DNA of 32,000 nucleotides from Formosa sp. Hel1_33_131 (GTDB lineage Bacteria > Bacteroidota > Bacteroidia > Flavobacteriales > Flavobacteriaceae). The stretch is taken from the NCBI RefSeq assembly GCF_001735745.1, contig NZ_CP017260.1:510001-542000 (forward strand). The letters run 5' to 3'. The notes under the pieces were generated by a model. It worked only from the letters and a program-made list of their open reading frames with translations, was not told the origin of the DNA and made no database searches. Below are positions 11,245-28,696 of the stretch, piece by piece (within the stretch, counting starts at the first letter, position 1; every line of letters begins with the position of its first letter). A program made the translations under genes and the position numbers.

Positions 11245-11291
11245 TACCCTAAGAATAAAAACAGTTTTTTATCTTTGAACAAACGAACACT

Positions 11292-11795
11292 ATGGATTTA
11301 ACAGAGAATTGCATTTTAAATCACGATGAAATAAATCATAAAGTAAAACGAATTGCGTATCAGATTTATGAAACGAATGTTGAAGAACAAGAAGTTATTC
11401 TTGCTGGTATCGAATCCAATGGCTATTTGTTTGCTGAGAAATTAAGAGCCGCCTTGGTTGAAATTTGTGACATCAACCCCGTTCTTTGTAAAGTAAGCAT
11501 TGACAAAAGAAATCCAACAAACCCTATTACCACTTCGCTTACAAAAGAGGCGTACACAAATAAATCATTGGTATTGGTGGATGATGTATTGAACTCTGGA
11601 ACGACTTTGATATATGGAGTGAAACATTTTTTGGATGTTCCTTTAAAACAGTTTAAAACGGCGGTTCTTGTCAATCGAAACCATAAGAAATACCCGGTCA
11701 AAGCAGATTTTAAAGGCATCTCTTTGTCAACCTCTATCCATGAGCATATTTCTGTGATCTTTACAGGAAAAAAAACGAAAGTGATTTTAGAGTAA
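11292..11795 (+). CDS. Phosphoribosyltransferase-family protein (PyrR/purine PRTase-like)
   Basis: 167-aa with the PRPP-binding loop LVLVDDVLNSGTTL. Confidence 0.7.
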   Translation: MDLTENCILNHDEINHKVKRIAYQIYETNVEEQEVILAGIESNGYLFAEKLRAALVEICDINPVLCKVSIDKRNPTNPITTSLTKEAYTNKSLVLVDDVLNSGTTLIYGVKHFLDVPLKQFKTAVLVNRNHKKYPVKADFKGISLSTSIHEHISVIFTGKKTKVILE

Positions 11796-12433: not shown

Positions 12434-12506
12434 GACCTGGTAGCTCAGTTGGTAGAGCATCTCCCTTTTAAGGAGAGGGTCCTGGGTTCGAGCCCCAGCC
12501 AGGTCA
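12434..12506 (+). tRNA. tRNA-Lys (anticodon UUU)
   Basis: Hand-folded 73-nt cloverleaf. Acceptor stem GACCTGG/CCAGGTC, D arm GCTC-AGTTGGTA-GAGC, anticodon arm TCTCC-CTTTTAA-GGAGA, T arm CTGGG-TTCGAGC-CCCAG, discriminator A. Confidence 0.92.
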
Positions 12507-12510
12507 CTAA

Positions 12511-12541
12511 AAAAAGTTAAGTTTATTCTTAACTTTTTTTA
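12511..12541 (+). terminator. Rho-independent terminator after tRNA-Lys
   Basis: Stem AAGTTAAG (12514-12521) / CTTAACTT (12528-12535) with a 6-nt loop, followed by a T-run. Confidence 0.6.
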
Positions 12542-12560
12542 TACCTTTAACATTCATAAT

Positions 12561-12645
12561 GCGCACGTGGCGGAATTGGTAGACGCGCTAGCTTGAGGGG
12601 CTAGTGGGAATTATTCCCGTGGAAGTTCGAGTCTTCTCGTGCGCA
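12561..12645 (+). tRNA. tRNA-Leu (anticodon GAG), class II with long variable arm
   Basis: Hand-folded 85-nt cloverleaf. Acceptor stem GCGCACG/CGTGCGC, anticodon arm CTAGC-TTGAGGG-GCTAG, long variable arm TGGGAATTATTCCCGTG, T loop TTCGAGT. Confidence 0.9.
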
Positions 12646-12701
12646 CTATTATAGTTTCATATAATCGCATTTAAATTTCTTGATTTAAACACTCCACAGT
12701 T

Positions 12702-14653: not shown

Positions 14654-15918
14654 TTTAGCACCTCCTTTTTTGAGTTCTTAAACAAGAGTCCTACATATTC
14701 TTTAGGCAATGGATGCACATTGATTTTTCCGTTATAGATATGATTTTGATAAATGGACCCAAATTGATTGGCTATAAAATTTTTGGCAAATACGGTTCCG
14801 TACACAGTTCCTTTGAGTTCTGTATTTTGATTGCAATACAACTCCCCTATCAAAATAGCCGTTTCTTGAAGTTCAATTTGAGTTTTATAATTATTAGGAG
14901 GATCGTTTCCTTGATAAACAACCACCCCTTTCACTACCGAAGACTTCCCTATTTCTATGGAAGGTTTTTCTTTTGTACCAGTGGTGTTTGGTAGGTTTTC
15001 CACTTGATTTTTATTTAAAATTAATGCCGATGGGTAATTTAATTGAACAGAATTACCAACGCTCATTCTCTTTGATGCGAAGGCTTGAAAATTTGAAATG
15101 ACATTATTTCCAATTTCAATCTCGGGGGCAATGAGCACAATATCCTTTAATACGGCCGATGCCAGAACTGTGATTTTGGTTTTGGACTGCACGACAATAT
15201 GCCCTGTCAATTGAACTTCATTAAGAATAACATTAGTCGTTGAGAAATGAATTTGAAGAGGATCAAAAAATGAATTGTTATATGCTTTTCCGGATTCAAT
15301 TGTAATGAATTGAGTATTTGAAATTTCTGAAACGTGAGATTCAATAGATTCTATTTGATCAACAATATCCGTTGCTAAAGGTGGTAATGTAGAAGACTGC
15401 TGGGTGGAACCATAAAGAAGTTGAGAACCCGTATAGGAGTGCCCAGAAATAGTCCCTGCCTTTACGCCTTGTTTGGGTAAAAAAACGACGCCCTCAATTT
15501 TGGTTCTCCCCACCACTACCAACGGCTTGCGTGTATCTTGAAGGTATAAGGCGGTTCGGTTTTGATCCTTGGACTTTGCTCCTATTAAAGCGACTTTTCG
15601 AAACTGATTGGTTTTGATTTTAGAGACTGAAGTGACTCTTTCAAAAATACCCCAAAAATCACGGTGGATTTCTAAGGTCTTAAAGCTTGGTTCTTCAAGT
15701 GGGATTGCCACGGTGTCCTTCAAACGAATGGAATGGAGCAGAGCGTGCTCAATTCCTTTCTGAGCGTTCTGTGTGGTTTCAAGTATGAAGTCTGTTTGGA
15801 CTTGAAATCGTTTATGACTATGAACCAATAAAACAAACCCCATCAATAACACTGCAATAATAATCGAAATAAACAGCGTCAATTGCAAAGCTCCTGATTT
15901 AAGTTTTAAGAGAATCAT
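14641..15918 (-). CDS. Membrane-anchored GspK-like minor pseudopilin candidate with a beta-helix-like C-terminal half
   Basis: 425-aa. The N-terminus MILLKLKSGALQLTLFISIIIAVLLMGF resembles GspK-type leaders (no Glu+5). The C-terminal half has repetitive short-strand segments (VQLTGHIVVQSKTKITVLASAVLKDIVLIAPEIEIGNNV...GTVYGTVFAKNF). The functional call rests on context only. Confidence 0.4.
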   Translation of the reverse strand: MILLKLKSGALQLTLFISIIIAVLLMGFVLLVHSHKRFQVQTDFILETTQNAQKGIEHALLHSIRLKDTVAIPLEEPSFKTLEIHRDFWGIFERVTSVSKIKTNQFRKVALIGAKSKDQNRTALYLQDTRKPLVVVGRTKIEGVVFLPKQGVKAGTISGHSYTGSQLLYGSTQQSSTLPPLATDIVDQIESIESHVSEISNTQFITIESGKAYNNSFFDPLQIHFSTTNVILNEVQLTGHIVVQSKTKITVLASAVLKDIVLIAPEIEIGNNVISNFQAFASKRMSVGNSVQLNYPSALILNKNQVENLPNTTGTKEKPSIEIGKSSVVKGVVVYQGNDPPNNYKTQIELQETAILIGELYCNQNTELKGTVYGTVFAKNFIANQFGSIYQNHIYNGKINVHPLPKEYVGLLFKNSKKEVLKWLY

Positions 15919-16379
15919 TAAGGGCGTTTTATGGTTTGAAGTTGGCGGTTGTAGCGCACTACAATTTCGCTAGAATTACCACGTACAAGCGTCACACTAT
16001 CGACGGTTTGCCCTTTTTTTATTATATACTGTCGGTTGTTTATATTCAACACAAAAACAGGGGTCTTGCTATGTGTTTTTTGTACGATTCCTGCATAGGT
16101 GATTTGTTTGAGGGACATTGGTTTTGGAGGGGGGCGCAAGGGTCTCTTGATTTTTTTAGGAGGTTTTGAAAACGTTCCTAAAAAGGGATCCCGATCTATC
16201 TTTTGGATGGAAAAAGAATCCATTTCGATAGGAGTAATTGGCACAAAGGTTTGGTTTTGGACGGTCTCAACTTCAAGAAGTTCTTTAGACTGTAGTGCAC
16301 TGTTTATTTTAACAGCAATGAGTCCCCAAACAATAAGGACCGCGGTGATTAGGAGGTATGTTTTTTTCTTCTTATTCAA
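15918..16379 (-). CDS. Bitopic membrane protein, PilP/GspC-like
   Basis: 153-aa with an N-terminal TM segment (TYLLITAVLIVWGLIAV) and a Pro/Lys-rich linker (KPPKKIKRPLRPPPKP). The C-terminal small beta domain ITYAGIVQ...VFVLNINNRQYIIKKGQTV..VTLVR resembles PilP/GspC HR domains. Confidence 0.45.
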   Translation of the reverse strand: MNKKKKTYLLITAVLIVWGLIAVKINSALQSKELLEVETVQNQTFVPITPIEMDSFSIQKIDRDPFLGTFSKPPKKIKRPLRPPPKPMSLKQITYAGIVQKTHSKTPVFVLNINNRQYIIKKGQTVDSVTLVRGNSSEIVVRYNRQLQTIKRP

Positions 16380-17030: not shown

Positions 17031-17810
17031 CTAAAAATTTTTGTAGTTAATTTTCTTTTTGGCTTTTTTCGCAACTCGGTGGGTATTGATTGGACAGCGA
17101 TCGTCACTTTCTACGAAATCCACAATTTCAAGTTGACGTTTTCTATTTTCCTTCCAACAGGCCTTTGAGGTTTGATACCCAAACACCACCCCTTCACTGA
17201 GGTGTATTGAATGTTGTTCTTTATTTTGATTATAGGTTTTTAAGACATAATTATTGATTCCTGTATGTTCCAAAAACACTTGCTGCGCAGTGCTTAATTT
17301 AGCAGCGATTTCGGCATCGAAAACCACTGAAATTGTGGATACTAGATGTGCGTTGGTTTTGTTCTGTAAAAACTGAAAAACATCTTTATTTGCCTCACTG
17401 TTTAAGCTCTTCAAAACAGCGATACGGTCAGCAATTTCTAGTTTTAAAAAGCGAGGTTTTGGTTTCACAGAATCCACATACTTTACAACGATGGCCTTGT
17501 TTTGAGCAGATTTGGCGTTTTCAAAGGCCTTTAACTTGGATTTATTAAACGGTACTCCATTTACATGCACTTTAATCGGATGCTGGAATTGTGGGAAGGC
17601 GGTGAAATTATAGTCTTGTTCTAACAAAAAATTCTTATGGACTCCTATGGTACCAAGTTGTAAGTTTTGAGTGGTTATGTTTTGACGCTCTTGCTGAACG
17701 GACAGGGTTCTACAAGCTGTAAAACTTACTATCATTAGTGCGATGCAACTGTATTTGATCATAAGACAGGGGTGTTTGTATTTGAAAAAACGGCGTTTTT
17801 TAAACTCCAT
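17031..17810 (-). CDS. Hypothetical lipoprotein, first gene of the T2SS/T4P-like operon
   Basis: 259-aa ORF. A lipoprotein signal MIKYSCIALMIVSFTAC begins at an internal Met (nt 17762), which may be the true start. I recognise no family. Confidence 0.45.
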   Translation of the reverse strand: MEFKKRRFFKYKHPCLMIKYSCIALMIVSFTACRTLSVQQERQNITTQNLQLGTIGVHKNFLLEQDYNFTAFPQFQHPIKVHVNGVPFNKSKLKAFENAKSAQNKAIVVKYVDSVKPKPRFLKLEIADRIAVLKSLNSEANKDVFQFLQNKTNAHLVSTISVVFDAEIAAKLSTAQQVFLEHTGINNYVLKTYNQNKEQHSIHLSEGVVFGYQTSKACWKENRKRQLEIVDFVESDDRCPINTHRVAKKAKKKINYKNF

Positions 17811-18010
17811 TCAAAATGAATTTTGTCTGTGGAGCTACTTTGAATTTTAGAGGGATGCCACAAGTCTTGGCAACAACATTTAGAGGCTGTTGTTAGAAAG
17901 TTTTTAGAATGGACTGCAATGGGGGTATTGAGGTGCATTTTAGGTTAAGTTTACATTGGGATAACTAATATATGAAAAAAATGGACATCCGTGGCAAAAA
18001 GCTGAAAAAA

Positions 18011-18046
18011 GGGGCGTTTTAGCGTAAAAAAGACGTGGAGGTTGCC
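18011..18046 (-). repeat. Degenerate third copy (C) of the module-boundary repeat
   Basis: The minus strand reads GGCAACCTCCACGTCTTTTTTACGCTAAAACGCCCC. It aligns with the GCAACCTCTACG..CTTTTACGCTAA core of copies A and B. Confidence 0.55.
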
Positions 18047-18129
18047 GTGCTTACAGCTTGTGAGATATTGCCTTTTTTGGCTGCGAAAGTTATAGACTTC
18101 GTTAGCTAAGATCTTATTCTCTATCCTTT

Positions 18130-18637
18130 TTAAAAACCTATTTTAGTTCTAGGTGTTTCGTTATCTTGTTTATCAACTAATTCATCCAAGTAATTAAATA
18201 CTAATTCAATATTCTTACTGTGATTTGTTAGTTTCTTTTTAATTTCTTCAATATTAAGCTTAAATTATCCGTTAACATTTCACGTAGCTTGGTAAAAATT
18301 CTCATTATATGAATATTTACTGCAATCGCTTTTTTACTGTTCAAGGTACTCGATAACATCAGTACTCCGTGTTCGGTAAATACAAAAGGTAATTTTCTTC
18401 TTCCTCCCCAACTTGGTGTCGCAAATTACGACTTCAAGTTGCCCCATTCTTCTTTGGTCAATTGGAGCATAAAGTCTTCAGGAAACCTTTCTAAATTTCT
18501 TTTAACTTGTAGATTTAAGACTCTTGTCTCTACTTCGTAAAGTTCTGCTAAATCACTATCTTACATTACTTTTTGATCTCTTATGTAGTAAATCTTACTG
18601 ATCACTACTTCGTCTGGTATGATTAGTTTTTACTCAT
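18130..18637 (-). pseudogene. Decayed ORF6N-domain (KilA-N-related DNA-binding) gene
   Basis: The minus-strand translation reads [119 protein letters not shown]. After a frameshift it continues [41 protein letters not shown]. This matches the Bacteroidota ORF6N-domain protein pattern but carries at least two in-frame stops and at least two frameshifts. Confidence 0.75.
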
Positions 18638-18898
18638 ATTTTTAATAATATACGAATGTAATGACTTGACATCACAGATTGTGACATCAAGTTTGGTTTT
18701 AGCTAATTGAAAGGTCTCTATTAATATCCTCTTTTAACCAACACGTAATTACCTAAATTCACACTTGCTTCTATGTTCGTAATTTCAAAATATTATATTG
18801 TAAAAATACTAAAACTACATCAATTTTCATATCTAAAATAGTTTCCAACTGTTTTGAGCCTGCCACGTCTTTAGCGTGGACAACTCCCTATATAACAA

Positions 18899-18949
18899 CA
18901 CATTCCCTTATAAGGGACACTTTAGCGTAAAAGAGCCGTAGAGGTTGCA
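18899..18949 (-). repeat. Module-boundary repeat, copy B (51 bp, contains the palindrome TCCCTTATAAGGGA)
   Basis: CACATTCCCTTATAAGGGACACTTTAGCGTAAAAGAGCCGTAGAGGTTGCA matches copy A (23627-23677) at 47 of 51 positions by hand alignment. It lies 9 nt downstream of the stop of the last immunity-like gene. Confidence 0.8.
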
Positions 18950-18957
18950 CGGAAGTA

Positions 18958-19407
18958 TTAATCTTCAATAAAATCATTAATTCCCAAACTATACAAAATC
19001 CTATTTTCGAACTCTTTGATTTCTGCTTTATTTTTAGATTTTGTAAAGTCTTTATTAATGCGTTTCCAATTACCTAAATCCGAATGCTTTTTTACACTGA
19101 CAAAAGCTAAGATAGTTTCTGTTTTAGATTTTTTACGAACCCAAACATACATTATTTGACTTTTTTGTGGATTGTTAAAATAAATATGATACCAATGATC
19201 TTTACCAGAACTCCTTCCATCAACAAACCCATATTTTGGCTGCACTATGTAATTCTGGTTATCTTTTTTAAATTTTTTTATAACATCAATTAATTTCTCT
19301 TCTGATAATTTAATAGTGTATCTTTCAACATAAGGATAACTACCTGGTGCTAAGTTGCATGATCCAAACAAAAGTAAAAAAAGGCATAAAATTGTAATAC
19401 TTTTCAT
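18958..19407 (-). CDS. Orphan immunity-like lipoprotein (cassette 3)
   Basis: 149-aa with the signal and lipobox MKSITILCLFLLLFGSC. The gene is very AT-rich and sits 11 nt downstream of a toxin-tip fragment, in the same relative position as the other immunity genes. The function is inferred from context only. Confidence 0.45.
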   Translation of the reverse strand: MKSITILCLFLLLFGSCNLAPGSYPYVERYTIKLSEEKLIDVIKKFKKDNQNYIVQPKYGFVDGRSSGKDHWYHIYFNNPQKSQIMYVWVRKKSKTETILAFVSVKKHSDLGNWKRINKDFTKSKNKAEIKEFENRILYSLGINDFIED

Positions 19408-19418
19408 AATTATTATTT

Positions 19419-19724
19419 TTAGTTTCCGGGTTGATTTGTAACACCTACATTGCTAATGTGGAAATCAACCATTATTTGAGCTACACCTACACCTATTGTT
19501 GGAGCAGAATTTAATTTATAAATTGTTTTTGGCAATGCTGATAAGCCTAAACCAATACCTAAAACTCCAGCCCTAATTCTAGTCTTAATCGGTAAAAGTG
19601 GATTTGAAGCTATTTGTAACTCTTCTGATACAAATTTATAATCTGCGAAAACAATTTTCACTTTTACCTCAACTAATGACTGCCAATCTTTGTCACCACT
19701 AGAAAATTCTAGCGGGAGCGGGGG
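19419..19724 (-). other. 5'-truncated toxin-tip fragment (orphan cassette 3) with Gly-zipper-like hydrophobic segments
   Basis: The frame is open from about 19724. The ORF track begins at a GTG at 19661 and there is no ATG. The translation reads PPLPLEFSSGDKDWQSLVEVKVKIVFADYKFVSEELQIASNPLLPIKTRIRAGVLGIGLGLSALPKTIYKLNSAPTIGVGVAQIMVDFHISNVGVTNQPGN. It starts inside junction repeat F and has no Rhs core. Confidence 0.35.
19682..19721 (-). repeat. Cassette-junction repeat F
   Basis: GCCAATCTTTGTCACCACTAGAAAATTCTAGCGGGAGCGG shares two identical 11-nt blocks (GCCAATCTTTG, TAGCGGGAGCG) plus CCACTA with repeat E. It overlaps the stop codon of the upstream immunity gene. Confidence 0.7.
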
Positions 19725-20382
19725 TTATATCCAAAACAACAATTGGTATTAAAGCATAATCAAAAGATATTTCATTATTAGAAATATAGCTTACTAACAC
19801 TCTGTTGATTTTATTTAATAAATTAATATTTATATTAGAGGAACAAGAAATAGACACAATACCATCTTCATACATATATATGGCATATTTATCACGATTT
19901 CTAGTGCCAGAAAACAAAGGTATATAGACTAACGAATCAGTATTTTTAATTAAATATTGATTAATGTTCTTTTCATTTATATTGTCTATTTGTTCAAAAT
20001 TATTTGAATAGAAACCAATTTTCATATTTTTATTAAGACATCTTTGATTCTTATTATTTGGAAATAACTTTATCTCTGATTTAGGATAATTAAATAAGTT
20101 GTTTTTACTAAATACTAAAAGACTATCGTTTTTATCAATTTTAAAAATATATTTATTATCTCTAATAATATCTATTTCTGCGCAGGTTTGGTGTAAATAT
20201 TTATTTATTTTTTTTTCTAATTCACTATCATTAAAATTCAAATCATAATCTAATGTATAAAAAGACACACACTCTTTTATGATTTCTTTATCAGCTAAAT
20301 TTTCTTTTGAAAAAGAAAAAAATATCCAAACAACAAAGGCTGTAACTGAAATAAAGAAAAGGTAGTAGTATTTTAATCTCAT
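19699..20382 (-). CDS. Putative immunity protein of orphan toxin 2 (N-terminally membrane-anchored)
   Basis: 227-aa with an N-terminal TM segment (YYYLFFISVTAFVVWIFFSF). The gene is very AT-rich and lies 12 nt downstream of the orphan Rhs-CT. I recognise no family. Confidence 0.5.
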   Translation of the reverse strand: MRLKYYYLFFISVTAFVVWIFFSFSKENLADKEIIKECVSFYTLDYDLNFNDSELEKKINKYLHQTCAEIDIIRDNKYIFKIDKNDSLLVFSKNNLFNYPKSEIKLFPNNKNQRCLNKNMKIGFYSNNFEQIDNINEKNINQYLIKNTDSLVYIPLFSGTRNRDKYAIYMYEDGIVSISCSSNININLLNKINRVLVSYISNNEISFDYALIPIVVLDITPAPARIF

Positions 20383-20394
20383 AAAAAATATGAT

Positions 20395-21375
20395 TTATTT
20401 CATTATTGAATGTAATGAACTAAAATGCTTATCTGAATGAACTTCAATTATTAGAGTAGGGATTCTGCCTGCGCTGTCAGTAAGACCTCTATCAAAGAAT
20501 ATTGCATTCTCAAATATATCTCCGCCACTACTACTGTAAATTTCATAAGATTTCATAAAGTTAAAAAATCTATTATTTTTACTTAATAACGTTGACAACT
20601 TTCCATTAAATAGAACATTTTCGCCATTGAAATTAAAACCACTTTGAAACCTTATATTTCCAAAGGAATTTGGGAGTTGGTCAATACCTAAGTCAATTTT
20701 AGAGAAAGCTAAACTAATATCTCCATATGGATTATCTCTCAATTCTTGATTTTTGTTAATTTGACTTTGTAGGCCTTGTTCTATTGCTACTGGTATTCTT
20801 CCCGATACATAACTATTCCAATCGAATTTTTGACCATGTCCATCTCCTAAATTCCTATTCCACAAACCTTCAAATCCATCTGTAGTATTAAATCCCCAAT
20901 TTTTTATTACATCAGATTTGGTTGCTCCTCCATATTGTAAGCCAGCAGCAGTTGCTTGTCCTTTAGAAGTTATATCTTCTCGCCAAACCCATGTATCACC
21001 ATCTTTACCTCTTACCCAATCAAACCATTCCCCCCCATCAGGATCTACTCCATTAATCGGATTATTACCCATCCCTAAATACGGAGAGCTATACTGCCCA
21101 GCAGGATCCACAGTCAACCATCTTCCAATCCTACCATCCCAAAGTCTCAACTCAAACGCCTCTTTTCCCGTTTCAGCGTCTTTTTCTTGTCCTTGGAATT
21201 TGTACCTATAATTGCCTTCTATATTGCGGTTAGGCATTGGCATCCCAAATGGATAGTAGTCTGTTTTCGCAGTTAAAGATACAGCATTTTCGCCATTTTT
21301 CATAATCACGGCTCGTACATTTCCTAAATGGTCGGTGAGTTGAACTCGCCAATCTTTGACGCCACTAAGTACAAC
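20395..21375 (-). CDS. Orphan Rhs C-terminal fragment 2: end of the Rhs core plus a 211-aa toxin domain of unknown type
   Basis: The ORF track lists 20395..21309 (GTG start). The frame is open back to the immunity-1 stop at 21376. Translation is VVLSGVKDWRVQLTDHLGNVRAVIMKNGENAVSLTAKTDYYPFGMPMPNRNIEGNYRYKFQGQEKDAETGKEAFELRLWDGRIGRWLTVDPAGQYSSPYLGMGNNPINGVDPDGG followed by a unique C-terminus. It lacks a signal peptide and the YD-repeat shell. Confidence 0.75.
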   Translation of the reverse strand, partial: VVLSGVKDWRVQLTDHLGNVRAVIMKNGENAVSLTAKTDYYPFGMPMPNRNIEGNYRYKFQGQEKDAETGKEAFELRLWDGRIGRWLTVDPAGQYSSPYLGMGNNPINGVDPDGGEWFDWVRGKDGDTWVWREDITSKGQATAAGLQYGGATKSDVIKNWGFNTTDGFEGLWNRNLGDGHGQKFDWNSYVSGRIPVAIEQGLQSQINKNQELRDNPYGDISLAFSKIDLGIDQLPNSFGNIRFQSGFNFNGENVLFNGKLSTLLSKNNRFFNFMKSYEIYSSSGGDIFENAIFFDRGLTDSAGRIPTLIIEVHSDKHFSSLHSIMK

Positions 21376-21388
21376 TTAGCGGGAGCGC
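21348..21388 (-). repeat. Cassette-junction repeat E
   Basis: GCCAATCTTTGACGCCACTAAGTACAACTTAGCGGGAGCGC pairs with repeat F. It spans the stop codon of immunity 1 and the first codons (..LSGVKDWR..) of orphan fragment 2. Confidence 0.7.
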
Positions 21389-21957
21389 AAACTAGCACCA
21401 TCAGGGGCGTATTTCACATGTATAAATATTAAATAATTAATAGAATTTCTAAATACCTCATTTTGAAATTCGTTCATTTCAATTAACCCATATAAAATTT
21501 CTTTTGTTGGGTATCCTTTTTTAAAAATTTCAAAATACTTTTTTCTTATTTTACTTGAAAGTTTAGCTTCGATAGGACAATTATCAAACATGAAATTCAT
21601 AGTAGTAATATCATTGGATATGTAATTAAGAAAACCAGAGTTTTTTATTGTGATTTCTTTAATTAATTCAATTTTATTATGAGTTAATTTTTTGATTAAT
21701 TCATGGTAATCATTCTGATTTTTTCCTAAAAGAATACCTTCATCAATTAATTTGTTTTCAAATACACTAATTGAGTCAGATAAACTGATTTTATTATAAT
21801 TTATAGAATTATATATTGAACTCTTTATGTTTATTCTATTTGTTATCTTAGTATTAATACAATTCTCAAATTCAATAAATGATTTACTATTGTCATTACA
21901 TGAAAATATCATTACCCCTAAAATGAAAAAAATAATATTTTTAATCTTTGAAACCAT
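21376..21957 (-). CDS. Putative immunity lipoprotein of orphan toxin 1
   Basis: 193-aa with the signal and lipobox MVSKIKNIIFFILGVMIFSC. The start overlaps the orphan toxin 3' end by 17 nt and the gene is very AT-rich. Confidence 0.55.
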   Translation of the reverse strand: MVSKIKNIIFFILGVMIFSCNDNSKSFIEFENCINTKITNRINIKSSIYNSINYNKISLSDSISVFENKLIDEGILLGKNQNDYHELIKKLTHNKIELIKEITIKNSGFLNYISNDITTMNFMFDNCPIEAKLSSKIRKKYFEIFKKGYPTKEILYGLIEMNEFQNEVFRNSINYLIFIHVKYAPDGASLRSR

Positions 21958-23482
21958 TGCTTCTCCCTATATAATTATATTTTGGTTTTTTAGTAAATAT
22001 TTGCTGTTGAAATGCATCTTTATTCTTAGTATGAACAGTTAATTGAACAGCACCTGCTAGCTGCCAAACAATCCTACCATTCATCAAATATCCAAATCTA
22101 ATATTGTGATGCGTTATTCTCTTATCTGAGCCAAACATAGTTCCATAATCGTCATCTGGATGTTTCAAAGTATTTCCAAAAACAGCAGGATGGTACTTCA
22201 CATTAAATAAAAAACCTTCAGAAGTATACCACTGAACCGCAAGACTAATATCGACATTTTTTCCATTAATTTCAATTGACCCCTTATAATCAATAGGTGT
22301 TTGAAGTTGATATTTAATACCCCCAAAATAATCAGAAGATAACCACGCATTAGCTCCATCCGAAGCACTGTGCTGTAAAGCAAAGTTAAAATGATCTATA
22401 ACTCTTTGTTGCGTAGCTCTCCCCCCAGTTAATTGTAATCTTAATAAATCAGTCCCGAACATATCATATACGTTTCGACCAGATACAGTAGTAACTCCTG
22501 CTTGAATATTGTTCTCATTCCCATTTAATAAACCCTTTGCTTGATCATATGTAACTCCGTATTGATCAACAAAAGATTGAACAGTATCATTTTCTTCAGC
22601 AACATAAGAAACAGAACCATCAGCATTAACAATAGGTTTCCAAAATGCCCCATCAGGATCCGTTCCATTAATCGGATTATTCCCCATCCCTAAATATGGA
22701 CTCGCATATTGCCCCGCAGGATCCGTCGTCAACCACCGTCCTATTCGACCATCCCAAAGTCTCAACTCAAACGCCTCTTTTCCCGTTTCAGAGTCTTTTT
22801 CTTGTCCTTGGAATTTATACCTATAATTGCCTTCTATATTGCGGTTAGGCATTGGCATCCCAAAGGGATAGTAGTCTGTTTTCGCAGTTAAAGATACAGC
22901 ATTTCCGCCATTTTTCATAATCACCGCACGTACATTTCCTAAATGGTCGGTGAGTTGATAGACATCGCTGTTGGTTTGGCGGTAGTGGACCCCCAAACGG
23001 CTGCTGCCATAAATGGGTTGTTCTTTGAGCACGGTGGGTTGGCGTATTGTGGGTCCAAAGGCACCAGTATAAATGCCCATTGGACTGCCAGAAGCATCCC
23101 GTACATAGTAGGTTAGATAGGTATTCCCTGAACTATAAACTTCTTTACGTACACGCTGCCCCCGATCGTCATAGAAAAAGGCGAGTTTGGAGGCTGTGGG
23201 GACTTGCAGGTTGATGTTGTCTATGGAGATGCGTCCAAAACCAACGCAGTCGCGTTGGACTTCAATAGTAATGGTGGAGGTGGTGGGCGTGAATTCAAAA
23301 CTGTTGTGGGCTGTCAGATAGGGTGCACAGGCAGGGGTGTTTCCTACATTAGAAGTGGCGGTTGGGTTGGGACTGTTATGTGCCGCGGTGCCTAAGATGG
23401 TTCCGTTGGCATCTTTGATGGTGATGATGGCGGGTAAAAGAGCCGTAGAGGTTAGGGGTCCTAGTTTTATATGACAAACCAT
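21941..23482 (-). CDS. Orphan Rhs C-terminal fragment 1: unrelated 5' segment, last part of the Rhs core, and a 234-aa toxin domain of unknown type
   Basis: 513-aa. Residues ~95-275 parallel the end of the main Rhs (FFYDDRGQRVRKEVY..YYVRDASGSPMGIY..YGSSRLGVHYR..YQLTDHLGNVRAVIMKNG...NNPINGTDPDGA). A unique C-terminus follows. There is no signal peptide and no YD shell. Confidence 0.8.
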   Translation of the reverse strand: MVCHIKLGPLTSTALLPAIITIKDANGTILGTAAHNSPNPTATSNVGNTPACAPYLTAHNSFEFTPTTSTITIEVQRDCVGFGRISIDNINLQVPTASKLAFFYDDRGQRVRKEVYSSGNTYLTYYVRDASGSPMGIYTGAFGPTIRQPTVLKEQPIYGSSRLGVHYRQTNSDVYQLTDHLGNVRAVIMKNGGNAVSLTAKTDYYPFGMPMPNRNIEGNYRYKFQGQEKDSETGKEAFELRLWDGRIGRWLTTDPAGQYASPYLGMGNNPINGTDPDGAFWKPIVNADGSVSYVAEENDTVQSFVDQYGVTYDQAKGLLNGNENNIQAGVTTVSGRNVYDMFGTDLLRLQLTGGRATQQRVIDHFNFALQHSASDGANAWLSSDYFGGIKYQLQTPIDYKGSIEINGKNVDISLAVQWYTSEGFLFNVKYHPAVFGNTLKHPDDDYGTMFGSDKRITHHNIRFGYLMNGRIVWQLAGAVQLTVHTKNKDAFQQQIFTKKPKYNYIGRSNGFKD

Positions 23483-23626
23483 TCTCCCTCAAAACTCCCC
23501 TTCTCTCTTTAGTTCTCTCTTTAAACCCTTAATAGATACCAAACCTATACAAAAACCTCCTTAGCTATAAGCTTTGATACCAAATACTCTGTTGTTTCTC
23601 TTTCTTCTTAACACAATTCTTCCAAA

Positions 23627-23677
23627 CACATTCCCTTATAAGGGACAACTTAGCGTAAAAGTGTCGTAGAGGTTGCA
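23627..23677 (-). repeat. Module-boundary repeat, copy A (51 bp, contains the palindrome TCCCTTATAAGGGA)
   Basis: CACATTCCCTTATAAGGGACAACTTAGCGTAAAAGTGTCGTAGAGGTTGCA lies 28 nt downstream of the immunity-0 stop. A 20-nt part recurs at 23434-23453 inside orphan 1. That copy is 18/20 identical to A and 20/20 identical to copy B (18927-18946). Confidence 0.8.
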
Positions 23678-23705
23678 GTGCAGTGCAATTCAATATAGTA
23701 TTTAT

Positions 23706-23945
23706 TTACCAATTATATTTTATTATTAAAGTAGCTAATACAAAAAACAAAACAAACCCTATAAGTGTATTGACTGTTTCACTTTCTATTCCATTGTATT
23801 TTCCACCTTTGCCTTCCCAGATATATTTAAATCCAACCTTTTCTTTTTTAAGAAAAATGTTTTTAGAATTTATTATTACATATCTTAAACTAGCTCCTAA
23901 AAACGAAAAAATATAATGTACAATAAAAATACCTATAACATCCAT
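23706..23945 (-). CDS. Putative immunity protein of the main Rhs toxin (small 2-TM membrane protein)
   Basis: 79-aa with two hydrophobic helices (VIGIFIVHYIFSFLGASL and TLIGFVLFFVLATLII). Its ATG overlaps the Rhs stop codon as TAATG at 23943-23947. Confidence 0.65.
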   Translation of the reverse strand: MDVIGIFIVHYIFSFLGASLRYVIINSKNIFLKKEKVGFKYIWEGKGGKYNGIESETVNTLIGFVLFFVLATLIIKYNW

Positions 23946-26900
23946 TATTTATCTCCATTTAACCAATCATCAACAACACCAATACCTATTTGATAGTATC
24001 CCATATCTCCTTTCATACTTGTGCCAATGTTTTTATGTACCCAATTCATTTTTCTATTAATAAAGCCTCTTATTTTAGGTGCTAATTTAGACAAAGTGCC
24101 CTTAAATTTACTACTGAATTGAGCAGCATTAAGAGATGGTTTTTTTATTCTACCAAATGAGGCTAATGTTAACATTCCATTTATACCTGCATCAATCCCT
24201 TCAGTGCTTCCTCTCACAACACCGTTTCCATTTAAATGTTGTGGTTGATTATTAGGACTCAATAAATCAAAAGATGTTCCAAACACATATACATTATCAA
24301 GAGTATTATAAACTGCCCCTCCGATTTTTGAACTATACGAATCTGATGCATTAAGTTTATTCTCCATTCTACCAAAGAAATTATGCTGTGTACCTCTCAT
24401 CATAGGAACATCAAAACCTTGCCCACTTTCTGTAAATCTCCAGTTACCCCATTGTTGGTTCATATTCCAAGAATCGAGGTCTGCTCCACTTACTGCCATA
24501 AAGGTTCCTGTTAACTCTCCTGGTCCATCACCGCCACCATCATCAAAAGCAAGTCCATATTTCCTTTTTCCAGTTGATACATCACTTGTATAACGCTCCC
24601 CCCTAAATCCATTTCCGACCCATCCCCAAAATCTTCCCCATTTGGTTTTCCAACCACCATCTGGGTCAATACCATTTATTGGGTCGTTACCCATTCCAAC
24701 ATACGGACTCGAAAACTGCCCATAAGGATCCGTCGTCAACCACCGTCCTATCCTGCTATCCCACAATCTAAGTTCAAAAGCCTCTTTTCCCGTTTCAGCG
24801 TCTTTTTCTTGTCCTTGGAATTTGTACCTATAATTGCCCTCAATATTTCGGTTAGGCATTGGCATCCCAAAAGGATAGTAGTCTGTTTTCGCAGTTAAAG
24901 ATACTGCATTTTCGCCATTTTTCATAATCACCGCACGTACATTTCCTAAATGGTCGGTGAGTTGGTAGGCATCTGTTCCTGTCTCGCGGTAGTGGACACC
25001 CAAACGGCTGCTGCCATAGATGGTGTGTTCTGTGAGTATGCTGTTTTCATAAATAGCCATTGGAGTGCCAGCAGCATCGCGTACATAGTAGGTGGTGGTG
25101 GTTCCGGATGGGAGAATACTTTCTTTTTTCATTCGATGGCCTCTGTCGTTATAATAGAACCGGACGCGTGGCGTTCCATTTTTTTGTACTTCTGTGACCA
25201 ATCCACTGGCGTTGTAGGCATATTTTACCTGTTCGTCTTTGTTTTCTATGAGTTGCCCTATGGTGTTGTAAATATAGTTTTCTACGGTGGTTTGGTCTTT
25301 GATGTCTTCGGCATTGGTAGCTATCGTCACCGCATCATCCACACGTTGGAGCTGGTTGGGTTTGTCTGTTTTGTAGGCATAGGTCAACTCATCCATCCTG
25401 TTTGTACCGTTTTCTGTGTTTTTGTTTCGGTTCAGGGTTTGTATGTTCCCATTGGCATCGTAGGTGATGTTGCTGACTTGGTAGTCTGTGGAACCAAAGG
25501 GGTCTGAGTTGTTTGCGGGTACAATTTCGGCTGTAAATACAGAGTTGCCGCTGGCTACTATTTCTGCATTTGGCAAAAAGGTGATGGAATTGGTGGCTTG
25601 TATAGTGGCATTCGGATCTACAGTAAAATCGATAACCTCATCATCTCCTACACGTTGTGTGTTGCCATTGGCATTAAAGGTGGCGCCTGTCAACCAGTTA
25701 TTTCGGTTGTATTCATAGAGGTATTGGAAGGGGGTGTTGCCCAGGGTGTAGTCTGTATTCCAAGCAATGCTTTTGATGTTGCCATTGAATTGGTTGGTGC
25801 CAAAATCTGATACGTCAAAAGCATTGGAGCGTTTGTAATCGCCTTTGTAATAGTTGATACTCATCCCAAAAAGGTCGTTGGCATTTCCGCCGGGGTCGTC
25901 TGCTGCGGCTAAGCTAGGGTGGTTGATGGCTTTGAGTTGGCCTGCTAAATTATAGACGTAGTCTATTTGTTGTATGCCTTCTGCCAATTGCACATTGCGC
26001 AAAGCGCCTGTTTCATAGTAGTTATAGGCGGCATGTGTTGTATAACTCGCCCCATCTTGAGATGTTTCTACCTTGGTTAGACTGTAATCGATAGGATCAT
26101 AGCTGTAGCGGTGTATAAAGGTTTCGGTAGTGCTGTGTTTTTGATAGACTACCTGATTCACTTGGCTGGTAATGTCATCATACACATAATCGATGGTTTT
26201 TATGCCCAAGCCTAGGATGTTTTGCACAATCCATTGTACCCGTCCATAAACATCATAGCTGTAGTAGGTGGTGGATTGGTTGTTCTGAGTTTTGGCAACA
26301 TTTGTAGCTAAAAAGCCGGGATGGTGGTAAGCGGCATTTAATCCTGAAAGCCCCGATAATTCATTGGAGGCAAGAGCATCGTATTCTGTGAAATTTTGTT
26401 CGCTTCGACTGCCTGAAAAATTATTCGCCATATCGCCATTCAAATTGAGGCTGAAAGTGCCTTGGACTACCCCGCTTTCTATGGGTCTGCCCAAAGAGTC
26501 GTAGTTGGTGTAGGAGTATTCATTGGCAATTGCTTGCTTGCTGTTTTGCGAAAAGCGGATTTGCCCATCACTACGGTACACAAAATTAGCGGTGCCCTCG
26601 TCGGGGCTTGTGGTGCTTAGCAACTGTCCAAGTGCATTGTACTCGTAAGTGGACTCTAAGTGGTTTAGGGGTTGTTTTGAACTTATTAAATGCCCAACAT
26701 TGTCATAGGTGTTTAGGCTGTAGTCGTAGTAGTTTTCTTTGTAGGTTACTGCAATTGTTCCTGAAATGTAGGTGTCGGGATTGGTAACGGCCACTCTATA
26801 AAAGCCATTGGGAAGACTGGTGGTAGCTGCTGTTGTTGTGGTTTCTGTTATTAAATTAAAAATAGTGACTGCCGAAGCGTTTATAGAAAATCCAGTAGTG

Positions 26901-28696
26901 CCAGAGGGTACATGGATGTCCACAAAGCCTTGTGCCCCAATGGGGATGGTCATAGCTCTAGAGGTACCACCCCCAGAGCGTGCGGCGGCAAGTGTTTTGC
27001 CGTCGGTGTCTGTAAACACCACATTTTCTATGCCGTGCACATCTCTGACAACGGTTTTCATGATTTTACGGTTATTCGAATCGTATGAGGCACTGTTAAA
27101 AGCATTGGCTTGGGACAATTCTTGACTGGCAGGCATGGAAAAGGTATAGGATTGTAGCCAATCATCATTGTCGTCAATGTCACCATCATTGTCTGTATCT
27201 ACTTTGTTCCCTCCTATGGTTTTTAAGACTGCGCCGGGATTCAGATCGCTGAAAAAAGCTCTTGAAAAGGGATGGTCTGTGATGTCTTGGTAAGGCTCGT
27301 CTGTGTTATTATTGCTATAGTACCAACCTACTGTGTTTTCTTGTATGTTTGTTGAACTAATGTTTGAAAATGAATTCTCATACAGCTGTTTAATATTCCC
27401 TTGGGTTGGTGCAGAAAAGGTGTTAAATGACGGCCTTCCTTGTGGGTCATATTTTGTTTCGGAGAGCCATAGTTTATAGGTTTTAAAACTAAGCGCTTGT
27501 GATTGTGTTGGCTTTCCCAATCGGTTAAAATAATTAAGCGATTGTCCTATCAATTGACCCGATACATCGTAGGAACATTTAGACGTGTAATTAAACGTTT
27601 TGGTTCCCAATTTTTCATCACATGGACAATAGGCTCCTTTGTAGGAAAAATCATCGGAACTGTGATAATCATAGCTGTAATAGAGATGGTTGTTATCTTC
27701 TTGAAAGGGATTGGTTTTTAAAGTGCCTAATGCCAACCAAGCTAAGCTTTTTGGAAACACACTAAAATCCTCTATGCTTAATAAATCTCCATAGGTCAAA
27801 CAAGCAGAGGTCACAAACGGATCTTTTCCAAATACCTCTTTTCCTGTTTTCAGTTTGATGTATTCACTCATAGCAACCACAACTCTGTAATCTTCAATTT
27901 CACTTCCTAGCGTTGTTGATAATACGGTGTTGCCGTCATACACAAATGCAATGGTATTGCCGTCACGTTTCATTGCTATTTTTTTACTAGGGTCAAAAGA
28001 GGATGAGATGTCTTGGGAAGCAAAAGAAACCGCTTGTCTGTTAAAACCAATAAGGTCAATCGTTTCGTTGATAGGGATGTTATCAGGGGTTGTAGTTGGT
28101 GAAATCTCAATACACGTTTTTTTGTCAATGACAAGTCCTAAGGGGAGTTGTATGTCAGAGTTAGAATAAGGGCTTCCTAAATTAAAATTTAAACGGTAAT
28201 TATACCTGTCTTTTATCGCTAATGAATTGTCACCACTTAAAGGAAATGTATCGGAATCAGGAAGCGTACATAATTGATCTTTGTGTACCAAAAAAATACC
28301 CACTTGATAGGATGGTGGAAAATAAAAATAGCCATTATCTCCTGTAAGAGGATACCATCTTTTTTTTAAAATTGGAATTCCACTTATTTCTTCAGACGAT
28401 TGTTTGAAATTTTCTGACTGAAGAAACCTGATGTTCTCCAAACTCATTTCAAAACTCTCATTGTCTTTAGGAATCACTTTTAATGAAAGGATCTTAGTTG
28501 ATTTTGAAGCTTGATTACTAAAATTAATTCCTTCTTGATCTGTAATGATGGACTCATTGTACAGTTGTTCTTCGGAAGTGTTTATTAAAAACTGGGCCGT
28601 ATTAGAATCCCATTGAACAAGGTCTTGTCCAAAAACAGTGTTATGAATCCCCAAAAGGATTAATAACATTAAAATAATTTTTGTTTTAGTTTCCAT
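23945..28696 (-). CDS. Rhs/YD-repeat polymorphic toxin with a Sec signal peptide, DUF6443-like N-terminal region, YD shell, PxxxxDPxG core end and a 235-aa variable C-terminal toxin
   Basis: The ORF track gives 23945..28753. I prefer the internal ATG at 28696, which gives METKTKIILMLLILLGIHNTVFG/QD (a clear signal peptide) and removes the 68-nt overlap with the upstream gene. There are many YD repeats (YDPQGRP, YDNVGHL, YNALGQL, YDSLGRP, YDVYGRV, YDANGNI...). The core end is YQLTDHLGNVRAV...GNDPINGIDPDGG, with DPDGG encoded at 24653-24667. Confidence 0.9.
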   Translation of the reverse strand: METKTKIILMLLILLGIHNTVFGQDLVQWDSNTAQFLINTSEEQLYNESIITDQEGINFSNQASKSTKILSLKVIPKDNESFEMSLENIRFLQSENFKQSSEEISGIPILKKRWYPLTGDNGYFYFPPSYQVGIFLVHKDQLCTLPDSDTFPLSGDNSLAIKDRYNYRLNFNLGSPYSNSDIQLPLGLVIDKKTCIEISPTTTPDNIPINETIDLIGFNRQAVSFASQDISSSFDPSKKIAMKRDGNTIAFVYDGNTVLSTTLGSEIEDYRVVVAMSEYIKLKTGKEVFGKDPFVTSACLTYGDLLSIEDFSVFPKSLAWLALGTLKTNPFQEDNNHLYYSYDYHSSDDFSYKGAYCPCDEKLGTKTFNYTSKCSYDVSGQLIGQSLNYFNRLGKPTQSQALSFKTYKLWLSETKYDPQGRPSFNTFSAPTQGNIKQLYENSFSNISSTNIQENTVGWYYSNNNTDEPYQDITDHPFSRAFFSDLNPGAVLKTIGGNKVDTDNDGDIDDNDDWLQSYTFSMPASQELSQANAFNSASYDSNNRKIMKTVVRDVHGIENVVFTDTDGKTLAAARSGGGTSRAMTIPIGAQGFVDIHVPSGTTGFSINASAVTIFNLITETTTTAATTSLPNGFYRVAVTNPDTYISGTIAVTYKENYYDYSLNTYDNVGHLISSKQPLNHLESTYEYNALGQLLSTTSPDEGTANFVYRSDGQIRFSQNSKQAIANEYSYTNYDSLGRPIESGVVQGTFSLNLNGDMANNFSGSRSEQNFTEYDALASNELSGLSGLNAAYHHPGFLATNVAKTQNNQSTTYYSYDVYGRVQWIVQNILGLGIKTIDYVYDDITSQVNQVVYQKHSTTETFIHRYSYDPIDYSLTKVETSQDGASYTTHAAYNYYETGALRNVQLAEGIQQIDYVYNLAGQLKAINHPSLAAADDPGGNANDLFGMSINYYKGDYKRSNAFDVSDFGTNQFNGNIKSIAWNTDYTLGNTPFQYLYEYNRNNWLTGATFNANGNTQRVGDDEVIDFTVDPNATIQATNSITFLPNAEIVASGNSVFTAEIVPANNSDPFGSTDYQVSNITYDANGNIQTLNRNKNTENGTNRMDELTYAYKTDKPNQLQRVDDAVTIATNAEDIKDQTTVENYIYNTIGQLIENKDEQVKYAYNASGLVTEVQKNGTPRVRFYYNDRGHRMKKESILPSGTTTTYYVRDAAGTPMAIYENSILTEHTIYGSSRLGVHYRETGTDAYQLTDHLGNVRAVIMKNGENAVSLTAKTDYYPFGMPMPNRNIEGNYRYKFQGQEKDAETGKEAFELRLWDSRIGRWLTTDPYGQFSSPYVGMGNDPINGIDPDGGWKTKWGRFWGWVGNGFRGERYTSDVSTGKRKYGLAFDDGGGDGPGELTGTFMAVSGADLDSWNMNQQWGNWRFTESGQGFDVPMMRGTQHNFFGRMENKLNASDSYSSKIGGAVYNTLDNVYVFGTSFDLLSPNNQPQHLNGNGVVRGSTEGIDAGINGMLTLASFGRIKKPSLNAAQFSSKFKGTLSKLAPKIRGFINRKMNWVHKNIGTSMKGDMGYYQIGIGVVDDWLNGDK

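Follow-up and report, generated by a model that had tools for sequence, protein, structure and literature searches.

The Rhs loci of Salmonella and E. coli consist of a full Rhs gene followed by 5′-truncated orphans, each of which retains the end of the core, a variable tip and a cognate immunity gene, and which recombine through the core repeats. Gain of polymorphic-toxin tips and growth of orphan arrays are usually ascribed to homologous recombination alone. The rAID-1 clusters are defined by a XerD-like recombinase that heads the array at its 5′ end and is ≥44% identical to BF9343_RS08045, and by at least two co-directional downstream genes with a GC content ≤41% (10.1101/471110), and are restricted to Bacteroidales (10.1101/471110; PMC12247911). 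REP sequences are defined as short palindromic units with a GTAG or CGTC tag, with GTAG as the tag of REP superfamilies (PMC3733652). For integrons, we took an attC site to be one imperfect hairpin with an inverse core RYYYAAC and a core GTTRRRY at its ends. In the literature, we found no link of REP/RAYT or of ORF6N with Rhs arrays. Here we analyze a junction element, designated E, of an Rhs array in a 32,000-nucleotide stretch of Formosa sp. Hel1_33_131 (the window).

Copies of the junction element and gene order of the island

An earlier note on this DNA had described two 51-bp direct repeats, A and B, a degenerate copy, C, and a recurring 20-mer, which bracket an orphan Rhs array and an ORF6N remnant. 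All four were reproduced by direct reading and a repeat search and are beyond chance, and the order of the genes, all on the minus strand, is as described there. The features are as follows (here and below, a slash within a sequence marks the edge or break point).

23945-28753, minus strand: full-length Rhs toxin gene (RHS_repeat)
23706-23945, minus strand: 79-aa immunity gene of Rhs, immunity-0 (ORF table)
23609..23679, minus strand: junction element copy A (earlier 51-mer, 23627-23677; nhmmer E = 1.3e-20)
23454..23608, minus strand: spacer between copy A and the truncated copy
23434..23453, minus strand: truncated element copy, the 20 nt that adjoin the canonical edge (AACCTCTACGGCTCTTTTAC)
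18958..23482, minus strand: orphan array between A and B (ORF table and protein comparison)
21941-23482, minus strand: orphan 1, matching Rhs residues 1196-1369
21345..21407, minus strand: REP-type palindrome (CCGCTAAGTTGTACTTAGTGG) filling the junction between immunity 1 and orphan 2
20395-21334, minus strand: orphan 2, matching Rhs residues 1264-1374
19643..19724, minus strand: REP-type element at the immunity-2/orphan-3 junction
19419-19661, minus strand: 80-aa toxin-tip remnant in the orphan array
18958-19407, minus strand: 149-aa gene, the last immunity-like gene
18863..18952, minus strand: junction element copy B (core, palindrome 18904-18917, hairpin 18863-18879; nhmmer E = 1.4e-27)
18702..18862, minus strand: leader, common to B and a RelE/antitoxin cassette of sister loci
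18110-18637, minus strand: ORF6N pseudogene with two stops and one frameshift
18009..18046, minus strand: partial diverged element copy C, canonical outer edge GC/AACCTCC

Over the span first compared, A and B are identical at 47 of 51 positions; over 60 aligned nt (23625-23684 and 18897-18956), their identity is 88%, and TCCCTTATAAGGGA is present in both. Copy C (17994-18053) has 60% identity and lacks the palindrome. The 20-mer GTAAAAGAGCCGTAGAGGTT has its exact second occurrence at 23434-23453, where the truncated copy is fused onto the 5′ end of orphan 1. In window scans with shuffles, a 28-mer with ≤3 mismatches gave two matches (0.00 expected), the palindrome two (0.12 expected) and a degenerate 20-mer pattern four (0.12 expected). 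The outer edge of copy A (...CACTGC/AACCTC) lies 28 nt beyond the immunity-0 stop, as previously placed, and this junction recurs in eight other contigs; the spacing of copy B from the 149-aa gene is corrected from 9 to 8 nt. Fifty-one bp also proved too short for the repeated unit, in that B continues as far as another hairpin (CCACG-TCTTTAG-CGTGG) and has an additional ~160 nt in common with sister loci; A, B, C and the 20-mer are the core of the longer element E, of 57 to about 120 nt. The leader next to B contains an antitoxin-start remnant and a decayed integrase C-terminal remnant (about 18696-18777), and recurrence of the spacer next to A is limited to its first ~13 nt (TTGTGTTAAGAAG), found again after copy 1 of locus L028. 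Copy C adjoins the conserved chromosomal flank that begins at about 18007, and no E was found outside the array in the 18-kb flank of the window.

Orphans 1 and 2 retain the end of the Rhs core (73 and 89% amino acid identity, respectively) and are followed by genes of 193 and 227 aa, respectively; we infer from position alone that these small genes encode immunity proteins, and a family search gave no matches. The two other cassette junctions are not empty but carry the REP-type sequences listed above, the first of which provides the last codons of immunity 1. E is found at two of the five junctions of the window and REPs at two more; E thus brackets blocks, not single cassettes, and in this respect the earlier interpretation does not hold.

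Several identities for E were considered and rejected: a tRNA-derived att site, as the sole tRNAs (12434-12646) are unrelated to E; a phage or satellite origin, with 0 matches in pattern scans of IMG/VR; and a structured RNA or attC-like fold, with z-scores from −0.7 to +0.3. No Rfam family was found over 17500-24200 at E ≤ 1, the hairpins reveal no covariation (the copies are too alike and have no compensatory changes) and a sigma-70 promoter scan, with a model unsuited to Bacteroidota, found no enrichment.

Locus specificity and the constant outer edge of E

Among 185,579 species genomes, the single true match to E is in the syntenic locus L002 of an uncultured Flavobacteriaceae metagenome-assembled genome, the closest genome record, which has one copy (exact pattern; diverged copies could escape); all nine true metagenome matches are in Rhs, toxin–antitoxin or ORF6N arrays beside the same flank. 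E is thus found only in this locus type and is not a dispersed genome-wide REP, one of two findings that the earlier note had named as fatal to its reading. The other, identical content between copies in related strains, is not what we see, since the cargo differs greatly. Locus L021 has the order flank - C - ORF6N' - E - TA1 - E - TA2 - Int' - E - XRE', L044 contains six E copies, and L043, with a chimeric copy B and a circularly permuted cassette order, shows that copies are involved in recombination. E bounds the toxin–antitoxin cassettes of L021 and several junctions of L044, and sits between XRE and integrase remnants in L009 and L021; in sister loci, integrase and XRE fragments lie directly against the repeat. 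A target-site duplication at the L021 integrase/ORF6N junction was rejected, because a second decayed integrase remnant there indicates two decayed modules. The most degenerate copies are the flank-proximal ones, as expected if these are the oldest. Copies of E are junction sequences between swappable toxin, immunity and addiction-gene cassettes at one hypervariable locus of marine Flavobacteriaceae, and the evidence speaks for E as a sequence of junction and recombination.

When read with the Rhs genes, each copy of E shares a constant outer edge, ...(G/C)TGC joined to AACCTCTACGG, which meets more than 12 unrelated sequences that include immunity-gene ends, a RelE stop, ORF6N, and interrupted XRE, RelE and Rhs-core genes; in more than 12 contexts, the break point is confined to a 6-nt span (GTT/G/C/A/C/G). 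The edge stands beside intact gene ends after six different immunity genes, the RelE stop and ORF6N. Elsewhere it interrupts genes: XRE1 at about codon 43 (with microhomology AGARGTTGC), XRE3 at codon 9 (compared with intact XRE3), RelE at codon 35, and the Rhs core behind YYPFGMP. Around the edge, there are no evident inverted arms of the kind that a tyrosine recombinase binds at its core site. The arrangement expected of tandem site-specific integration, in which a constant crossover-like point meets unrelated flanks and has a diverged counterpart toward the chromosome, is seen here, the counterpart being copy C, with 38 nt in common with E.

Recombinase modules of relatives and a proposed origin of the array

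As first reported, the window contains no recombinase gene, with no integrase among its ORFs or family matches. The missing recombinase is present in relatives, which at this chromosomal position have two XerC/D-like tyrosine recombinase genes, flanked by ORF6N and an XRE gene. An intact module contains an XRE repressor, a P-loop protein (a putative replication ATPase), the two recombinases, ORF6N, an orphan Rhs tip and an immunity gene, and probably also an invertible switch segment. These ~7-8-kb units occur at the same site in tandem or as an exact concatemer (L029), with degraded neighbours. The ORF6N pseudogene of the window is a remnant of such an XRE/P-loop/two-integrase/ORF6N module, with 72% amino acid identity to ORF6N of L034 and 84% DNA identity to L045; its relatives are found in Arenibacter, Algibacter and Wocania. 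E is absent from all of about 15 intact-module loci (nhmmer and BLAST), including L045, the closest intact module (84-88% ORF6N DNA identity), and within 10 kb of the E-bearing arrays no recombinase is intact. With E absent from every intact module, E is not shown to be the att site of these recombinases; the copy expected in a free or intact element (attP) was not found, among modules that include none of the matching XRE2 type. E is not a simple XRE plus integrase deletion scar, as its non-XRE part has no match in intact modules, and the idea that E began as the natural start of an XRE2-type gene, for which the reading frame is suggestive, was set aside with no intact XRE2 relative retrieved.

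Given tandem modules, recombinase genes and fragments against the repeat, tandem accretion of recombinase-associated toxin/immunity modules is a fair description of this locus. The earlier proposal of tandem accretion, with later decay, is supported, E is unproven as the attachment site, and the earlier interpretation as a whole is partly supported. The palindrome had been read as the site of a dimeric DNA-binding protein, which is plausible, as intact modules carry their own near-palindromes in the XRE/Rep control region; it may be the operator of the repressor.

The constant edge suggests a site-specific crossover by the recombinases of the module. We give an even chance to the reading that E marks the outer (left) end of each sequentially added unit in a hypervariable array between the Rhs gene and the T2SS-like operon. 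Units would arrive as the ~7-8-kb modules (XRE, P-loop, two recombinases, ORF6N, invertible segment, Rhs tip and immunity gene) or, in some cases, as small cassettes such as RelE/antitoxin pairs, and the backbones would decay by deletion to leave toxin-tip/immunity pairs separated by E. Copy C, with 38 nt in common with E and touching the chromosome, would be the flank-side partner of the site, and surviving copies of E would provide portable homology for block duplication, deletion and reshuffling. A more ambitious form of this reading, which we consider unlikely, has Flavobacteriaceae capture genes in an integron-like manner, with E as the recombination site on the cassette side and the XerC/D-like pair, on a concatemer-forming, satellite-like ~7-8-kb module, as the driver. 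Such a module, with its own repressor, putative replication ATPase, ORF6N and invertible switch, and with the palindrome as the repressor operator, would ferry Rhs toxin tips, immunity genes and toxin–antitoxin cassettes between strains and stack them behind the resident Rhs.

Against a crossover site, homologous recombination between Rhs-core fragments explains several of the rearrangements without a site-specific step, and much of the rearrangement needs only such recombination between Rhs-core fragments or E copies. E might then be a mere linker with no role of its own in recombination, a terminator or a relic operator perhaps, which accompanies each toxin-tip/immunity cassette and is multiplied by RecA-type exchange and duplication of cassettes between core fragments. 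The orphans begin at one core position (CAACTCACCGACC, QLTDHLGN) behind E and REP alike, a comparison of L043 with the window matches unequal crossing-over between core fragments, and the spacer from each immunity gene to E is constant in every contig. All three terminator-like matches on the transcribed strand (6.1 kb scanned) fall within A and B, but their number equals the shuffle expectation (3 versus 3.0), and the folds, by the z-scores above, are not unusually stable. This explanation leaves five different genes broken exactly at the edge of E unaccounted for, and toxin–antitoxin cassettes and ORF6N, which lack an Rhs core, are also bounded by E; we regard it as unlikely.

Also unlikely, in our estimate, is that E is a diverged REP/REPIN member spread or kept by the RAYT (Y1 HUH transposase) of sister arrays, with the edge as a RAYT cleavage point set off from the hairpin and the recombinases irrelevant. 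Besides the REP palindromes at two junctions of the window, each immunity-to-orphan junction of L009-type arrays has REP doublets in inverted orientation with a spacing of 151 nt, as does the vicinity of a Y1_Tnp (RAYT) gene, and the ~9.5-kb flank has none; the distance of this gene from E is 200 nt in L009-type loci and in L030, and there is no such gene in the window, L021, L028 or L044. In L020, a REP is inserted at the inner end of E with a CAACTC duplication. Three blocks (GCTNKTTT, CGCTAAGKTGT and CCACGCTAWAG(A)CGTG) that keep their order and spacing give E a weak colinearity with the doublet's first half. The global alignment beats 987 of 1000 shuffles (p about 0.013), whereas a local alignment fell short of significance (152 of 2000 shuffles). 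E contains the GTAG/CTAC tetranucleotide, a REP tag (PMC3733652), but 19 nt from the hairpin, not adjacent to it; its palindrome is unlike the REP hairpin, and the one exact-pattern copy in the L002 genome is unlike typical REPs. Finally, chance similarity or an assembly artefact has next to no claim, as 0 of 100 shuffles reach the observed counts and more than 20 independent assemblies, produced in different studies, contain these junctions.

This locus offers a testable alternative to array growth by homologous recombination, in that it combines a junction with a fixed edge, a tandem or concatemeric recombinase module, and natural variants in which gain, loss, permutation and decay are visible. 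Should the edge prove to be a true crossover site, an abundant marine lineage would extend integron- or rAID-like capture to entire toxin/immunity modules; if not, short palindromic junction elements (E and REP doublets) still organise cassette exchange in Rhs arrays.

Comparison with known systems

The locus resembles rAID-1 (Ross et al., bioRxiv 10.1101/471110; PMC12247911) in pairing a tyrosine recombinase, here in relatives, with immunity-type genes that share one orientation and a low GC content (minus strand throughout, GC 0.21-0.40 across 19000-22500), in having repetitive intergenic sequences between genes, and in a content that varies strongly between strains; E and REP correspond to the rAID-1 motifs by their position at junctions. 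In contrast to rAID-1, the host is a marine member of the Flavobacteriaceae, not of the Bacteroidales; the array retains toxin tips with an Rhs-core fragment plus immunity genes and follows a complete Rhs gene; a recombinase is absent from the window; and relatives carry two recombinases, XRE, a P-loop protein and ORF6N per tandem unit, whereas one recombinase heads a rAID-1 array.

Chromosomal integrons (e.g., Vibrio VCRs) likewise have a near-identical ~60-120-nt repeat at cassette boundaries, one-sided conservation up to a GTT-containing edge, unrelated cargo including toxin–antitoxin pairs, and some insertions into secondary sites. Unlike integrons, this system has no IntI-type integrase, the recombinases of relatives scoring best as XerC/D-like and only 89 and 29 bits with integron-integrase models (cut-off, 265). 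E lacks R''/R' ends and a single imperfect hairpin, having two small independent hairpins with no terminal pairing; its edge, GTTGCAC, fits the core GTTRRRY only partly; it lies upstream of the genes of its own cassette, and many junctions have no E. As to the integron- or rAID-type mechanism put forward earlier, E is not structurally an attC and membership in rAID-1 cannot be claimed.

With REP/REPIN-RAYT systems (PMC5581495, PMC3733652), the locus shares short palindromic units, inverted doublets, a GTAG, which in E stands 19 nt from the hairpin, and, in sister loci, a single Y1 transposase gene flanked by repeats; it differs in that the repeats are concentrated in one array and not shown to be dispersed, and in that E has a perfect 14-bp palindrome and one exact-pattern copy per genome. 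The ~7-8-kb units, which encode a regulator, tyrosine recombinases and what may be a replication ATPase and are tandem or in exact concatemer (L029) with degraded neighbours, are similar, by description only, to tycheposons, VEIME satellites and a RitB-like element of marine Flavobacteriales (PMC11876622); they are distinguished by two XerC/D-like recombinases and by a cargo of an Rhs toxin tip and immunity gene, probably behind an invertible segment. Integration beside an Rhs array in place of a tRNA gene may be a further difference. In layout, the array agrees with Rhs orphan arrays, as orphans 1 and 2 lie behind a full Rhs gene and keep the end of the core, with a variable tip and then a small gene after it, and rearrangement by recombination between core repeats is another common trait; unlike those arrays, its orphans are parted by defined junction elements, E or REP, and are mixed with toxin–antitoxin cassettes and remnants of recombinase modules.

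Repeat copies in the window and their distribution

Every gene of the island lies on the minus strand in the table of open reading frames, and each orphan, a 5'-truncated Rhs copy that keeps the core end and a toxin tip, is followed by a small gene. An 80-aa toxin-tip remnant (minus strand) is also among the island genes.

Features of the island (window coordinates)
23945-28753, minus strand, Rhs gene (RHS_repeat)
23706-23945, minus strand, 79-aa gene (ORF table)
21941-23482, minus strand, orphan 1, 73% match to the Rhs core end
20395-21334, minus strand, orphan 2, 89% match to the Rhs core end
18958-19407, minus strand, 149-aa gene (ORF table)
18110-18637, minus strand, ORF6N pseudogene with two stops and one frameshift

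Direct reading and a repeat search recovered all four sequence items described in the earlier note, namely copies A and B bracketing the orphan array, copy C beyond the ORF6N pseudogene, and a recurring 20-mer. Over 60 nt, A (23625-23684) matches B (18897-18956) at 88% identity (47/51 over the span first described). The perfect palindrome TCCCTTATAAGGGA is present in both and absent from C (17994-18053), which is degenerate. The 20-mer, GTAAAAGAGCCGTAGAGGTT, is found again exactly at 23434-23453, and the observed repeat counts were matched by 0/100 dinucleotide-preserving shuffles. The spacing proposed for A, 28 nt past its gene, is correct, while B lies 8 nt rather than 9 nt past its gene. 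The first 98 codons of orphan 1 (23189-23482) are unrelated to the main Rhs protein and fall where the GC content of the island is highest (0.50 over 23001-23500). Outside the island are a perfect 19-nt inverted repeat, AAAGAGGCTGTCTAAAAAG (9585-9603 and 9723-9741, 119 nt between arms), and tRNA-Lys(ttt) and tRNA-Leu(gag) (12434-12646), which lie 5.4 kb from the island edge, beyond the T2SS-like operon, and bear no sequence relation to the repeat.

We scanned one genome per species (185,579 species) with a degenerate pattern spanning A, B and C, and obtained one true match, in a Flavobacteriaceae metagenome-assembled genome (L002); the other three matches were rejected as coding look-alikes. 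This locus is syntenic, running from a Rhs orphan array through the repeat and ORF6N debris into the T2SS-like flank that the window also has, with 92.6% identity to window 17900-18007. A metagenome scan designed to pass over the particular junction of L002 yielded nine true contigs, all nine of the same locus type as the window. The pattern has 0 matches in IMG/VR, and an Rfam search of the repeat region returned nothing. The repeat is thus not the dispersed genome-wide element that the earlier note had considered, since species scan and metagenomes give only this locus type. With a profile made from the copies, further ones came to light in sister loci; the L044 array has six, and in L021 one separates two RelE/antitoxin pairs.

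A junction element with a constant outer edge

The copies are part of a longer junction element, here termed E, whose shared core reads (G/C)TGC^AACCTCTACGGCTCTTTTACGCTAAGNTGTCCCTTATAAGGGAATGTGTTGG in the direction of the Rhs genes (caret, edge); a second hairpin, CCACGCTAAAGACGTGG, often comes after it. The inner side varies, and may be a toxin-antitoxin leader, an orphan starting from QLTDHLGN, an integrase remnant, or an unrecognised spacer. The outer edge is constant: across more than 12 unrelated contexts, the apparent break falls inside a 6-base stretch of GTT^G^C^A^C^G (plus strand of the window); the 20-mer joined to orphan 1 corresponds to the first 20 nt of the element counted from this edge. 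In most of these contexts the edge follows an intact gene at a distance of a few to 44 nt (ORF6N, the stop of a RelE gene, or one of six different immunity genes), and in five the gene is interrupted.

Genes interrupted at the outer edge
XRE gene, break at about codon 43, with AGARGTTGC microhomology
Second XRE gene, break at codon 9, checked against an intact 112-aa relative
Third XRE gene, break at about the same point
RelE, break at codon 35
Rhs-core fragment, break after YYPFGMP

Many partner sequences at the edge contain TGCA(C/G) pentamers, from one to three each. The edge of copy A (window 23675-23692) reads TTGCAC TGCAC TGCAACC, and one to three tandem pentamers precede the TGCAACC end of the element there and in two relatives (L044 3688-3704; L028 2280-2290), which may be a footprint of repeated joining. 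The element does not form an attC-like hairpin, its folds are no more stable than usual, and covariation analysis of the hairpins was of no use because the copies are too alike. All three terminator-like matches on the transcribed strand fall in A and B, in a total that equals the shuffle expectation. Other truncated forms of the 115-aa XRE (P0005, P0030, P0036, and P0059) break at codons 37-58 into different foreign sequences; one of these, CAATCGTGCGGCAGCTGGGG, lies in L005 between XRE and the neighbouring immunity gene and may be the equivalent junction motif of another lineage.

The two other immunity-to-orphan junctions of the window are filled by REP-type palindromes of the CCGCTAAGTTGTACTTAGTGG family (21345-21407 and 19643-19724), the first of which also encodes the last residues of a 193-aa gene (...PDGASLRSR*). 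In sister arrays (L009-L018, e.g., L009 10780-15330, and L002 1255-5640), inverted REP doublets 151 nt apart occupy every cassette junction and also flank a Y1_Tnp/RAYT gene; the ~9.5 kb of chromosomal flank of these arrays contains no REPs. This distribution speaks for E being a REP-derived element tied to RAYT, as does its colinearity with the first half of the doublet (global alignment better than 987/1000 shuffles); the local alignment score, however, is not significant, and we regard such an origin as unlikely.

Ten contigs share the flank and the junction of truncated XRE with the repeat and differ in their orphan sets. Content between copies, which the earlier note had proposed to compare, is thus not identical among relatives and differs in orphan sets, toxin-antitoxin cassettes, and order: L021 has toxin-antitoxin cassettes in place of the immunity genes of the window, and L028 contains an IS element as well as a pair of copies spaced 209 nt apart. 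In L043 the order is orphan 2, orphan 3, B, the main toxin tip of the window in orphan form, A, and orphan 1, a circular permutation of the window; the tip and its immunity gene (2172-3830) stand there as an orphan after copy B. Copy B of L043 is itself chimeric, with a 5' part of the window B variant and a 3' part of the L028/L020 variant. From this chimera and the permuted order, we infer that repeat copies, as well as Rhs-core fragments, serve as recombination substrates. That E is a passive linker which simply travels along when Rhs cores recombine seems doubtful to us. In a close relative, the L044 array (10001-11617 and 14764-16300) contains the first gene of the T2SS-like operon in duplicate, together with a second ORF6N, which is intact and has a C-type copy of its own; the flank itself was duplicated there.

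Recombinase modules in relatives

Starting from the truncated XRE that adjoins the repeat in L002, we reached full-length XRE proteins (115 aa) and their contigs. The window has no recombinase gene, as first noted, and modules at the same position in relatives (in L005, between the toxin array and a secretion-type operon) carry two. An intact module consists of an RstR-like XRE, a 508-531-aa protein with the Walker A motif GSSGVGKT and no relative in the PDB, two XerC/D-like tyrosine recombinases, ORF6N followed by a ~900-nt gap, an orphan toxin that starts with the Rhs-associated core domain (TIGR03696), and an immunity-type gene. Modules with different cargo occur in tandem in L034 and L045. 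L029 (1-13403) is exactly periodic at 7,980 nt, and is therefore a circular element or a perfect concatemer, with a unit of XRE, a 510-aa P-loop protein, two integrases, ORF6N, Rhs tip, and immunity gene; L032 (8,122 nt) wraps round the same unit. Inverted repeats (36-80 nt) bound a stretch of ~340 bp that lies between ORF6N and the orphan toxin (L029 7549-8051). The stretch has opposite orientations in different contigs (also L034 2345-2754 and L005 5174-5392) and is probably an invertible, phase-variable switch placed ahead of the toxin tip.

Next to the P-loop gene start, intact modules have near-palindromes of their own (ACCTTATTAGGT in L047, TAAGCGTTTTCGCTTA in L005, and TTAGAACATAT/ATATGTTCTAA in L045), and no such module contains E. 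An intact module of the XRE2 type, in which the XRE reading frame runs into the element, was sought and not retrieved. The ORF6N pseudogene of the window is 84% identical in DNA to ORF6N of L045, the match beginning just past the integrase stop, and the stretch between B and the pseudogene still contains the start of an antitoxin gene and the decayed end of an integrase gene. The repeat in L009-type loci and in L021 stands directly between two remnants, an XRE truncated at its 5' end and the final ~35 codons of the second integrase. Judged from these ORF6N, integrase, and XRE remnants, the locus is a graveyard of recombinase modules.

Proposed tandem addition and relation to known systems

The reading of the earlier note, accretion at an attachment site or a recombinase-associated array, is borne out in part, by the junction element, the variable cargo, and the recombinases of relatives; a simple att-site reading has contrary points in the lack of E from the intact modules, the REP palindromes at the other junctions, the colinearity of E with the REP doublet, and a fold unlike that of attC. 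We give an even chance to a model of tandem joining in which E would mark the fixed outer end of every unit. In this model site-specific crossover would take place at the edge of E, with C as the partner on the flank side, and a repressor would probably act at the palindrome; the present layout would come from later decay and homologous shuffling. The main weight of the finding lies in the fixed-edge junction element and the recombinase-bearing toxin modules of relatives.

The locus is a genuine Rhs orphan array and, by analogy, may work like rAID-1 and chromosomal integrons, with no claim of membership in either. It shares gene orientation, low GC, and repeated intergenic motifs with rAID-1 but differs in taxon, and differs from integrons in integrase type and attC fold. 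Finally, the intact modules of relatives resemble reported descriptions of small, concatemer-forming tyrosine-recombinase elements of marine bacteria, including Flavobacteriales.
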